40,035 bases of DNA from a virus. Its lineage: Duplodnaviria > Heunggongvirae > Uroviricota > Caudoviricetes. The position numbers were made by a program. The stretch is taken from IMG/VR virus record IMGVR_UViG_2851938318_000014. One strand, given 5' to 3'. Below, piece after piece: positions 36,001 through 40,035 of the stretch (position 1 is its first letter; every line of letters begins with the position of its first letter).

Positions 36001-39000
36001 GTTTGCCAAAAATGGAAAGGAGAACCCGGTGGTGTGATTGCGGAATGTCATGTTAACTGCCTGGTTGAAACAGATGTTCAGGCTTATGCAAACGCTGAAT
36101 TTATTGCTGCCTTTAATCCAAATGTTGCGCTGGCGCTTCTGGATGAACGGGAAAGAAACCAGCAATACATCAAACGCCGCGACCAGGAGAACGAGGATAT
36201 TGCGCTTACGGTTGGGAAGCTGCGCGTTGAGCTTGAAGCAGCAAAATCAAAACTCAACGAGCAGCGCGAGTATTACGAGGGAGTTATCTCTGATGGGTGC
36301 AAGCGTATTGCTGAACTGGAAGCGCGGGAAGTTCAATTACCGACTCGCTACGACCTTCGATATGGACACCCGATAAATGCAGATGAGCGACAAGTCATGA
36401 TACCTAAAGAAAATGGCAGTTGGCTTTACCTGATTGACCTAGAACACGCATTACGCGTCGCTGACATTCGCATCAAAGGTGAGTGATATGGCGTTAACAC
36501 ACCGCGAACTCTGTCAGATTGCGTACAAGTTCCTTAAGCGCAACGGTTTCAAGGTTTGTTTTCATGACCGCTTTATAGCTGTAACCAGTACCGGAGAACA
36601 GCCAGATGCTATGGGATTCAGAAATTCAGCATCATGCCTGATAGAGGCGAAATGTTCTCGTGCTGACTTGTTGGCAGATAGAAAAAAGCGTTTTCGTAAA
36701 AATCCGTCTCTTGGAATGGGCGACTGGCGATTCTTTATTAGTGAGCCGGGAATTATTTCAATTGAGGATTTACCACCTGGCTGGGGATTACTTCATGATC
36801 CCCAAATCCATAACAACGATAAGGCGAAGGCATTAAAGAGTGCTACTGAGCACACTCTCCAAGCCGTAGCGCGGAAATGGTTAGATGAGAAGGTAAAGAC
36901 ATCAGGTATCTCACAAGACCATGCAGCAGACATCTGGCGCAGCTTAGAGAGAAATGTCTTTCCCGGTCTGGGTAATGTCCCTATCAATGAGATCCGACCT
37001 AAGCTCTTAAAACAACACCTTGATCCTATTGAGCAACGAGGCGTATTGGAAACTCTACGCCGTATCATTTCACGTCTGAATGAAATCTTCCGGTGGGCAG
37101 CTACTGAAGAACTTATTGAGTTCAACCCGGCTGACAACCTTGGTCAAAGATTCAGTAAACCAAAAAAGCAAAATATGCCTGCCCTTCCCCCAAGCGAATT
37201 GCCAAGGTTTATGGAATCTTTGACGAATGCGTCAATCCGGTTGGAAACACGTATGCTAATTGAATGGCAATTGTTGACATGGGTTCGTCCGGGTGAAGCC
37301 GTTCGCGCAAGGTGGTCTGATATTGATACAACCAACAGCATTTGGAACATTCCTGCTGATTTCATGAAAATGAAAAAGCTTCACAAAGTTCCTTTGAGTA
37401 AAGAAGCTTTGCGCATCCTTGAATTAATGAAATCAATAAGTGGGCATAGAGAATGGGTTTTCCCCAGCATAAAAGCGCCTCTTAATCATATGCATGAACA
37501 AACAGCCAACGCAGCTATCATCCGAATGGGGTTCGGAGGCGAGCTTGTAGCTCACGGTATGCGTTCTATTGCACGAACAGCGGCAGAGGAGTCTGGTAAA
37601 TTCAGAGCTGAAGTTCTTGAGGCAGCGCTTGCCCACTCGAAAAAAGATGAAATTATCGCAGCATACAATCGTGCAGAATATCTGATAGAGCGACAGAGTT
37701 TGATGCAATGGTGGAGTGATTACGTTCAAGCTCAAAGATCAAATGCTCTGGTAGCCTAAGTATCAGAATAGCTAATATAATCCTGAAGGTAAAGAAAATG
37801 GAAACCCTATTCAAAGTTTTTGAAAAATTTAGTTCCAGACCACTTTTTTTTATTTTTTTCGGACTCTCACTTTGTGAATTTTTTCAGAAACAATCTGTTC
37901 TGATGAATCCATCAGCAGATAACATCGCGAAATTATTCGCAGCCATGATATTAGTTGTTTTTTTTACTTGGGGATTTGAATGGCTAATCTTCAAGTTCAA
38001 TGTAAACCTTGAACCTCATGATCAAGGCGATATTGGACCAACAATTGGAACGGCTACTTTAGCTGTATACTTAGTTTATGCCTTTCACTTTCTCAGTGAA
38101 AATCCTGAAGCATTAAATTTAAAGTTATTAACTAACTCTGGCTTTATATACAGCACAACTCTATTATTATTCTCATTAGAATGCATGAAGCTTAGAAGAC
38201 TTAAACAAAAATAAACAACATCATTGTGATGATAAATATAAAATAGGCATGGCGAAAAAAAAATCACCACGCCTAAAATATAATAATTATGGTAGCATCA
38301 TTGATACATAATCCACACCAATCCTTGAGCTATACTGAGACGCTATAGCCTGATATCTTTCTGCATAACCAGTTCTCAGTTGAGATTTAAGTTTGAGTCG
38401 GACAGGAACATTTTGCACGTTGCCATCCATATTACTTAAAAACACGGCAGAAATAATATTTTTTTCTTCGCCATCAACTGTTGTTCCATGATTCAACACC
38501 ACCATATAATCAACAACAGGAAGCGTTTTATCCCCTTCGAAAATAGAGAGATATTTTCTTTGATTTTTATGCATTACATATATATATTTCGAATGTTCAG
38601 CAAATGGCAATGCTTTACTCTGACTGGCGTTAAAAAGCTCCAGAACTTTAATGAGCCTGTGCGGACTTAATCTTACATGGTGAGGGTCGTTACCCTGAGT
38701 AGGAACCAAATCACATGCCGCAGATACACATAAATACCATTTGTTCGACTCTGTATCAAAGAAAATAGTGCCAGTAGAAATATGACCATCTTCAAAATTC
38801 TTTGAAGACAAATTCATATTTAAAGCATGATACATTTCGTGATAAGTATCATTATTTGATGGCAGATCCATTTTTGAAGAGCAATATTGGAGCAATGCAG
38901 CAACTCCGCTGTTAGCGTATTCATTTGAATAGCTATCAAAAACACTTTTGATAAATTCATCCAGCGTATTATTATTTTTAAGTCTTTGATAAAGCTCTTC

Positions 39001-40035
39001 TGATAAATTACCAAATACAAAGTCAATATTTCTACATCTAATATCAGGCGAGTCTGATTTTAATATCTCATTTAACCACGCAGCTTGACCGTAATGATCG
39101 TTAGCCAAATGATTTACAAAAGATAAAGCCTCAGCTTCGATTGCATTCTGAATTTCAGATTTTATTAACTGATAATAAGATGGTTTCCATTCAATGAGAG
39201 AATCATTGAGAGTTTGCCAAATCCTATCTCCATCGTTTTCATGATCATCTTGAACCTTATGAAATAGGGAGACAAAGATATTACCACATTGAATCCATTT
39301 TACTCCGCTTTCATCACCCCGAATGACATTGCCAGATGTGTTGCTAGAAATAATTGCATTTCTAGACACAGCATATTCTGCAATCATTTTTGCAATGAAG
39401 TTTTTATCCTTTTGATCCTCCAACACAGCATCATCATGTATTAATCTTTTAATTCTTCTACAAGGCTTACTGTCTTTAATATAGGCTATTGTTTCATCTC
39501 TTGTGAGAGCTTTATTACCATTATCATTTAAGTTCGGTAATACAACGTCTTCCCAATAACTTTGGACATCTTCATTATCGTAGTCAATGATCAAGCTGTT
39601 GATATCCAGAGCACCTTTGAGAGTCGATGATATCTGCATCCAAACCGTTTCTAAATTCTCTCTAGTATATATTACAATCATATTTAAATGATCGGAGTCT
39701 TTCAAATCTTGTAATAGTTTAAGTGTTTTATCAGGTGCATTATTATCAAGATGATAATCTACAATAATAAGATCTGATTTTCTAATCCGATCCACATCGA
39801 AATTAACAGAACCATTGTCAACATCACAAATCATATTTTTAGATTGAAAAAAGCTCTCAAGAGTAGCGGCTCGTTTAGATGAGTCAATTTTGTTGTAGTC
39901 TAAATCAACTTCGTTATTCAACGCCCTGATTGATTCAGAATACGTCAGAAAATCGTCATCAATCATGACAACGGAACGAATTGCATTTTCGCAGAAAGTT
40001 TTCTGGACAAGAGAATTATAATTTGCCACTGTCAT

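Follow-up and report, generated by a model that had tools for sequence, protein, structure and literature searches.

The sequence analyzed here, which we call the window, is the whole 40,035-nucleotide (nt) stretch of the IMG/VR virus record IMGVR_UViG_2851938318_000014. It is 100% identical to Escherichia coli RM9131, and its final 2.3 kb are also 100% identical in E2863 and in several O111 strains. The window opens with smpB and the transfer-messenger RNA gene ssrA (698-1060) and closes with AT-rich DNA that carries the gene of a 582-amino-acid (aa) receiver protein. An earlier, sequence-only reading had described two convergent open reading frames (ORFs) after an integrase-like ORF (36479-37759), and we confirmed both, a 138-aa gene at 37798-38214 on the plus strand and the receiver gene at 38287-40035 on the minus strand, whose ATG indeed falls on the last base of the window. 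An in-frame ATG further upstream would yield 588 aa; the position of the Shine-Dalgarno sequence and the N-termini of homologues favor the 582-aa start. The G+C fraction of 37760-40035 is 0.336, whereas the remaining 2276-bp windows have a mean of 0.528 (standard deviation 0.045, minimum 0.426), which places the segment more than four standard deviations under that mean. This comparison confirms the AT-rich composition noted before, and the idea that the DNA is foreign and belongs to a mobile element is borne out both by G+C content and by the ssrA island described below. However, the compositional switch near 37760 is not the boundary of that element, since homology to the island begins at 36796, within the integrase ORF. 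Taken together, the results below indicate with good confidence that positions 36796-40035, together with 1.8 kb past the window, are the surviving end of an older integrative, mobilisable island that targets ssrA.

The product of the receiver gene matches the Pfam family PF19192 (Response_reg_2) over residues 19-175 with 109.1 bits (cut-off 27, E = 3.6e-31), and the RefSeq annotation also places it in this family. PF19192 and PF19191 (HEF_HK) were defined together in silico in 2021 (Bellieny-Rabelo, Pretorius & Moleleki 2021, PMC8011034), where the receiver proteins of PF19192 form the group OG_4. Thus, the protein is not unassignable to any family, as had been supposed, and this locus adds a decayed member to a family that was already known in silico. 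The receiver domain spans residues 19-262 (39250..39981, minus strand) and contains an insertion of about 100 helical residues between β4/α4 and β5. In an alignment of 34 sequences the full receiver active-site set is invariant, namely the acidic pair D26 and D27 after β1, the predicted phospho-acceptor D93 at the end of β3, T124 at the end of β4 and K260 at the end of β5, with the strands taken from the AlphaFold2 model. We equate these residues with CheY D12, D13, D57, T87 and K109. The PF19192 match and the invariant residues support what had been seen from the sequence, a CheY-type receiver with an insertion at the N-terminus. D88, five residues ahead of D93 in an SDLIIxD motif (residues 88-93, window 39757-39774), is likewise invariant among the 34 sequences, and we know of no such conserved residue at the start of β3 in canonical receivers. 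PF00072 gave no match at E ≤ 1 in the 582-aa Pfam scan, and Pfam and profile scans found no recognized output-domain family in the protein, DNA-binding families included; only the fold is common to it and to canonical response regulators with PF00072 and a DNA-binding output. PADLOC and NCBIfam scans of the protein gave nothing useful.

Past the receiver domain, the 582-aa protein consists of a helical middle region (residues 263-410; 38806..39249, minus strand) and a beta-rich C-terminal domain (residues 411-582 and the stop codon; 38287..38805, minus strand), which is the presumed output or effector domain. The middle region, modeled by AlphaFold2 with predicted local distance difference test (pLDDT) scores of 84-85, has no family or fold match. 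In a separate model of residues 262-582 (pLDDT 84.6), residues 263-410 are helical and residues 411-565 are beta-rich, ending in a helix. Foldseek against the PDB with the C-terminal model returned no match (best E only 0.07), PDB sequence searches with the full-length and C-terminal profiles returned nothing, and no family recurred when 23 diverse fragments of the C-terminal domain were scanned with Pfam at E ≤ 10. A phmmer search with the C-terminal domain against 1.84 billion representatives returned 218 relatives and no new architecture. Nearly all of these relatives are about 580-640 aa long and carry the domain at the C-terminus; the two unusually long matches that were scanned are PF19192 carriers, and the short matches, which are without a Pfam domain, look like fragments. 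The C-terminal domain, which matches nothing else by sequence, is therefore exclusive to the PF19192 family.

Across the family N406, G422, C441, R560, R571 and G573 are invariant, and C436 and D575 are conserved at 94% and 98%, respectively. C436 and C441 lie in a CVS(P/A)AC motif (CVSPAC here), directly ahead of the sole low-confidence loop (441-448); motif and loop lie within the stretch of residues 436-474 (window 38612-38728). No nuclease or toxin signature was recognized in this motif. The best lead for the domain is a CcdB/MazF-like toxin barrel, and we consider it tentative and rather doubtful. The domain differs from the CcdB/MazF/Kid fold in showing no sequence or profile similarity to it and no Foldseek support; when a C-terminal profile of 51 sequences was compared by hhalign with a MazF profile of 21 sequences, the probability was 0.08%. 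The family residues N406, C436, C441, R560, R571 and D575 also do not match those that we take to be the MazF/Kid catalytic residues. The only stretch aligned by hhalign placed P-H-R460 over MazF H-R-P, which was treated as chance.

The receiver had been described as an orphan whose partners, if any, would lie outside the window. The latter was borne out and the former was not, since a kinase-like gene with HEF_HK and HATPase_c domains ends 1 nt before the receiver start codon. This 5′-truncated gene begins 1 nt past the window edge, is co-oriented with the receiver gene and would occupy window positions 40037-41876 (22338-24177 in our locus L001); the kinase stop and the receiver start read TAA-T-ATG. 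In complete genomes it is annotated directly upstream of the receiver as a 572-aa ‘ATP-binding protein’. The protein carries PF19191 and PF02518 (HATPase_c, E = 1.8e-11), with an SHELEE H-box in the E. coli copy. Before the annotated start, its frame continues without a stop for another 67 codons, and the translation extended in this way aligns at 98% identity with 988-aa proteins of Salmonella, Klebsiella and Serratia, over their residues 372-988. These full-length kinases additionally carry HATPase_c_3 (PF13589), which is absent from the E. coli copy. Across 15 kinase homologues, H782-E-L-E, the N box and the G2 box of the kinase domain are invariant and the N-terminal GHKL (Bergerat) motifs are at least 90% conserved, while the truncated E. 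coli row has no residues in the latter region. The kinase of about 988 aa is soluble and is built from a MORC-type GHKL ATPase (HATPase_c_3) at the N-terminus, a coiled coil, the phospho-histidine helix pair of HEF_HK and, at the C-terminus, a HATPase_c kinase domain. PF19191 is without the Thr/Asn at H+4 that is required for phosphatase activity (bioRxiv 10.64898/2026.02.27.708494), which suggests that the HEF_HK kinase acts as a one-way trigger. A PADLOC scan of the full-length kinase found nothing.

Entries of 572 aa occur in six genera, and a natural short form of the kinase was considered and rejected. Because the full 997-codon frame is open in Salmonella, the 572-aa Salmonella entries are start-codon miscalls, and this error thus accounts for at least some of the ‘572-aa kinase’ entries found in databases; one such miscalled Salmonella gene lies at 3993-6983 of locus L008 (contig AAMSIC010000008.1). 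The ‘group 2’ architecture of PMC8011034, which is without HATPase_c_3, may therefore be partly an annotation artefact: for at least one protein of this type, a 572-aa Salmonella entry, the gene is intact and only its start was miscalled. In E. coli, by contrast, the sequence has truly been deleted.

The window from 36796 to 40035 is 99% identical in DNA to intact ssrA islands in other Enterobacterales. In these islands the order is a 409-aa integrase, the 138-aa gene, the receiver (582 aa), the kinase (988 aa), a C5 methylase and a relaxase. The integrase is of P4 type and includes the arm-binding domain, two further integrases lie with the relaxase past the methylase, and on one contig the integrase adjoins smpB. 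The methylase gene extends 20 nt into the start of the kinase gene; C5 methylase, MORC-type kinase and receiver form a tightly packed three-gene operon. A conserved triad of methylase, kinase of about 980 aa and receiver of about 590 aa, at 25-46% identity, was found in three more contexts: a Tn7-like element of Acinetobacter that carries it as cargo, a Yersinia P4-integrase island with a relaxase, and a metagenome contig where it lies beside AbiE genes. In a related Salmonella island an HNH/McrA-like gene lies alongside the cassette. The methylase of the intact relatives matches type II C5 models in PADLOC-DB v2, and Pfam and profile scans found no recognizable nuclease domain in any cassette protein; the intact cassette thus differs from type II restriction-modification in having the methylase and no recognizable restriction endonuclease.

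These observations agree with the published account of the two families, which are linked at 91.6% across 644 genomic regions, with restriction-modification genes enriched nearby, C5 methylases above all, with Vsr and HNH genes linked, and with HATPase_c_3, HEF_HK and HATPase_c as the usual kinase architecture (PMC8011034). The pair studied here belongs to the same family as the pairs of that study: the Pfam matches are above threshold, the two genes lie side by side in the same orientation, the kinase-like product is soluble, and a C5 methylase precedes the pair in intact relatives. That study already included E. coli members; the E. coli copy differs in having neither the methylase nor the HATPase_c_3 head. 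The C5 methylase is a frequent companion of the PF19192 family and not a strict requirement.

In E. coli, the island breaks off on the left at codon 89/90 of the integrase gene. On the right it breaks off 1.8 kb past the window, at about codon 376 of the kinase gene, which is joined directly to a ygaQ pseudogene. A single deletion in E. coli took away the remainder of the island with the methylase, and also codons 1-375 of the kinase gene, where the MORC ATPase domain is encoded. A second deletion, after the arrival of a prophage carrying Shiga toxin 1 genes (Stx1), cut integrase codons 1-89 and fused a phage gene to codon 90. The prophage-free E. coli strain 53 has smpB, ssrA, an intact integrase, the 138-aa gene, the receiver, the truncated kinase, IS3, ygaQ′ and glaH. 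Because this strain carries the stump, the stump predates the prophage; the Stx1 prophage later entered at ssrA and came to lie between that gene and the island. The receiver gene is present at 99% identity or more in 560 of 5426 complete E. coli genomes (about 10%), and none of the complete E. coli genomes has the methylase and 5′ part of the kinase of this allele; the methylase is absent at the locus. Of the 560 carriers, 12 have a receiver gene that is interrupted at the site tested; in the one such genome examined, the cause is an insertion of the IS3 family of insertion sequences (IS). Since the E. coli copy is left without methylase and sensor head and without the 5′ region of its own operon, it is probably an inert relic. 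An integrase-proximal defence module had been suspected here. A defence role is plausible for the family, whose relatives lie on mobile elements near restriction and abortive-infection genes (PMC8011034), but an active module in this window is unlikely, with the methylase and the N-terminal 375 residues of the kinase deleted.

We consider it probable that the intact cassette serves as a conflict system in which a phosphorelay is linked to methylation. In the mechanism that we propose, the methylase would mark self DNA, and the MORC-type ATPase head would sense the state of the DNA or invading DNA. Sensing would drive autophosphorylation at the invariant histidine of the H-E-L-E motif, the phosphoryl group would move from this histidine to D93 of the receiver, and the receiver would then free the C-terminal domain as a toxic or restricting effector. 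Here, we infer the phosphotransfer, the sensing step and any toxicity. The joint loss of methylase and sensor head in E. coli fits a restriction arm that would be dangerous without its methylase, and this fit is not proof. A more specific proposal, possible at best in our judgment, is that the intact cassette would represent an immune-system class in which a DNA-sensing MORC head driven by ATP is wired by a His-Asp phosphorelay to a new two-cysteine CcdB/MazF-like effector barrel exclusive to the family, with the methylase providing self-protection. If true, this would be a restriction-modification system with a signalling cascade as its ‘restriction’ arm, and the joint deletion of methylase and sensor head would be the only kind of loss that a cell could survive.

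Two known systems share parts of this design. The paraMORC ATPases, which occur in restriction-modification operons (Iyer, Abhiman & Aravind 2008, PMC2292703), likewise have an N-terminal GHKL domain with Bergerat motifs, as do the full-length relatives here, and links to cytosine methylases, Vsr, HNH and mobile elements. In that study paraMORC and MORC ATPases are partnered with a helicase or a PD-(D/E)xK nuclease, whereas the cassette here pairs a fusion of ATPase and histidine-kinase core with a receiver protein, and in the E. coli lineage of the window the ATPase head is deleted. Detocs (kinase DtcA, buffer receiver DtcB and receiver-effector DtcC; bioRxiv 10.1101/2023.01.24.525353) shares the logic of a phosphorelay that ends on a receiver-effector and is carried on mobile DNA. 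However, Detocs has three signalling genes, including a receiver-only buffer, while the cassette has two and no buffer; a receiver-only gene was found beside the pair in none of 16 related loci. The cassette also differs in its MORC-type sensor, its attached methylase and its unrelated effector domain. No PADLOC model matches the pair, and the presence of Detocs models in PADLOC-DB v2 was not checked. The DefensePredictor paper (PMC13092281) reports a predicted system with HATPase and REC domains, whose identity with this cassette could not be established.

Several observations weigh against reading the locus as the inert remnant of a conflict system. PADLOC-DB v2 holds no model for the kinase or the receiver, and no experimental study of any cassette member was found in the literature searched. 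In E. coli, 548 of the 560 carriers (98%) have both the receiver ORF and the truncated kinase ORF intact, so that some residual function is conceivable; divergence among the carriers is at most 0.3%, too low for a test of selection, and a promoter scan of the stump was uninformative, with 20 sites compared with 23 expected from shuffled sequence. The stump might accordingly be a still-working two-gene module, a truncated kinase of dimerization and phosphotransfer (DHp) plus catalytic and ATP-binding (CA) domains with an intact receiver, kept for defence or regulation under a new or constitutive input. The two intact ORFs are at least 99% identical among the 548 carriers, which come from lineages as varied as O111, O26 and commensals, none of the kinase core motifs or receiver residues is missing, and a strong terminator is kept. 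However, the stump no longer has its native 5′ end, a sensor ATPase head or a methylase, IS insertions in the receiver gene are tolerated, the divergence is too small to demonstrate purifying selection, and the upstream promoter signal is not above chance. We therefore regard a working module as improbable.

Equally improbable in our view is that the intact pair is an ordinary two-component system that regulates either the expression or the activity of a neighboring restriction-modification system, as was speculated before (PMC8011034), rather than the effector arm itself. Such a role would account for the histidine-kinase and receiver hallmarks and for the linkage to C5 methylases and to Vsr or HNH genes, seen in PMC8011034 and in the related Salmonella island. 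Yet the receiver protein has no recognizable DNA-binding output domain, triads in the most compact settings have no recognizable restriction endonuclease to control, and the three genes move as a single tightly packed operon on mobile elements.

For the conflict system proposed above, the wider interest lies in the intact cassette, which is found in Salmonella, Klebsiella, Serratia, Yersinia and Acinetobacter and is widespread on mobile elements. An intact copy, and not the E. coli one, would show whether bacteria use MORC-to-phosphorelay immunity. What deserves to be followed is the output domain, which is without any sequence match, and the intact cassette in other genomes.

An Stx1 prophage separates ssrA from the island stump. 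The translation of stxB1 (23528-23797, minus strand) matches Stx1 B, and an ORF of the size of stxA1 lies at 23807-24763. The sequence-only reading had taken the two genes at the end of the window as integrase-adjacent prophage cargo, a self-contained module for defence or superinfection exclusion with an orphan receiver at its core; AT-rich DNA does directly follow an integrase-like ORF at the early end of the prophage, and PHROGs families exist for all three proteins, presumably since prophage predictions took in the stump, but this is highly improbable, since the block of integrase, 138-aa gene, receiver and truncated kinase lies at ssrA in E. coli with no prophage there, 99% identical islands in Salmonella and other genera bear a relaxase and not phage genes, the kinase-like partner adjoins the receiver, and the integrase ORF itself merges a truncated phage gene with a truncated island integrase.

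In this chimeric ORF (36479-37759), codons 1-106 come from the phage gene, and codons 107-426 are codons 90-409 of the island integrase. The first part (36479..36795, plus strand) is the 5′ fragment of a phage early gene on the prophage side of the deletion junction, outside the island, and is fused in frame to the integrase remnant. It matches positions 20-123 of the 260 positions of phrog_631, which shows that the 3′ end of the phage gene is cut off, and its product has no similarity to the intact island integrase. The second part (36796..37759, plus strand) is what remains of the P4-type tyrosine integrase of the island; it corresponds, at 99% identity, to residues 90-409 in the complete protein of 409 aa. 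Pfam found Phage_int_M and Phage_integrase in the ORF and not Arm-DNA-bind_3, in line with loss of the arm-DNA-binding N-terminus, and RefSeq labels the ORF a pseudogene without N-terminus. At this end, the Stx1 prophage of this O111-type lineage is thus left with neither an intact integrase nor an intact attachment site, and it is probably locked in place.

The 138-aa gene (37798..38214, plus strand) encodes a hydrophobic protein that is 99% identical in the intact islands and is present in the related loci L002-L009. It is missing beside the distant cassettes of 25-46% identity, and therefore it is not a conserved cassette component and neighbors the cassette only in this lineage. Of the four transmembrane segments that had been assigned to the protein, a Kyte-Doolittle analysis supports one strong hydrophobic segment, a second is borderline and two are weak. 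No Pfam, NCBIfam or PADLOC family matched the protein. An intrinsic terminator hairpin, found by a terminator scan, lies between the convergent genes, just 3′ of the receiver gene (38244..38275, minus strand; L001 20576-20545), with a folding free energy of -22.1 kcal/mol and a z-score of -8.1, and is followed by a U-rich tract.

Several IS elements were observed at and near the locus. An IS3-family element at 33449-34662, annotated as IS1203 by RefSeq in an identical genome, disrupts a phage recombinase gene. Related strains have extra IS3-family copies nearby, one of which, in E2863, removes a further part of the integrase remnant. In E. coli EC20017429 (locus L019, 3587-6648), an IS3-family insertion splits the receiver at about codon 453; such a split probably explains both a ‘453-aa partial’ cluster with 1605 members and a 129-aa PHROG family that matches residues 454-582. 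IS3 was also considered as the cause of the deletion between kinase and ygaQ and was dropped, as the O111 lineage is without this IS3 at the junction and has 15 extra ygaQ bases. In prophage-free E. coli, a 1258-bp IS3 lies exactly at the kinase/ygaQ junction (L011 9177-10434) with no 3-bp target duplication, and it replaces the 15 bp of ygaQ that are kept in the O111 lineage (L001 24178-24192).

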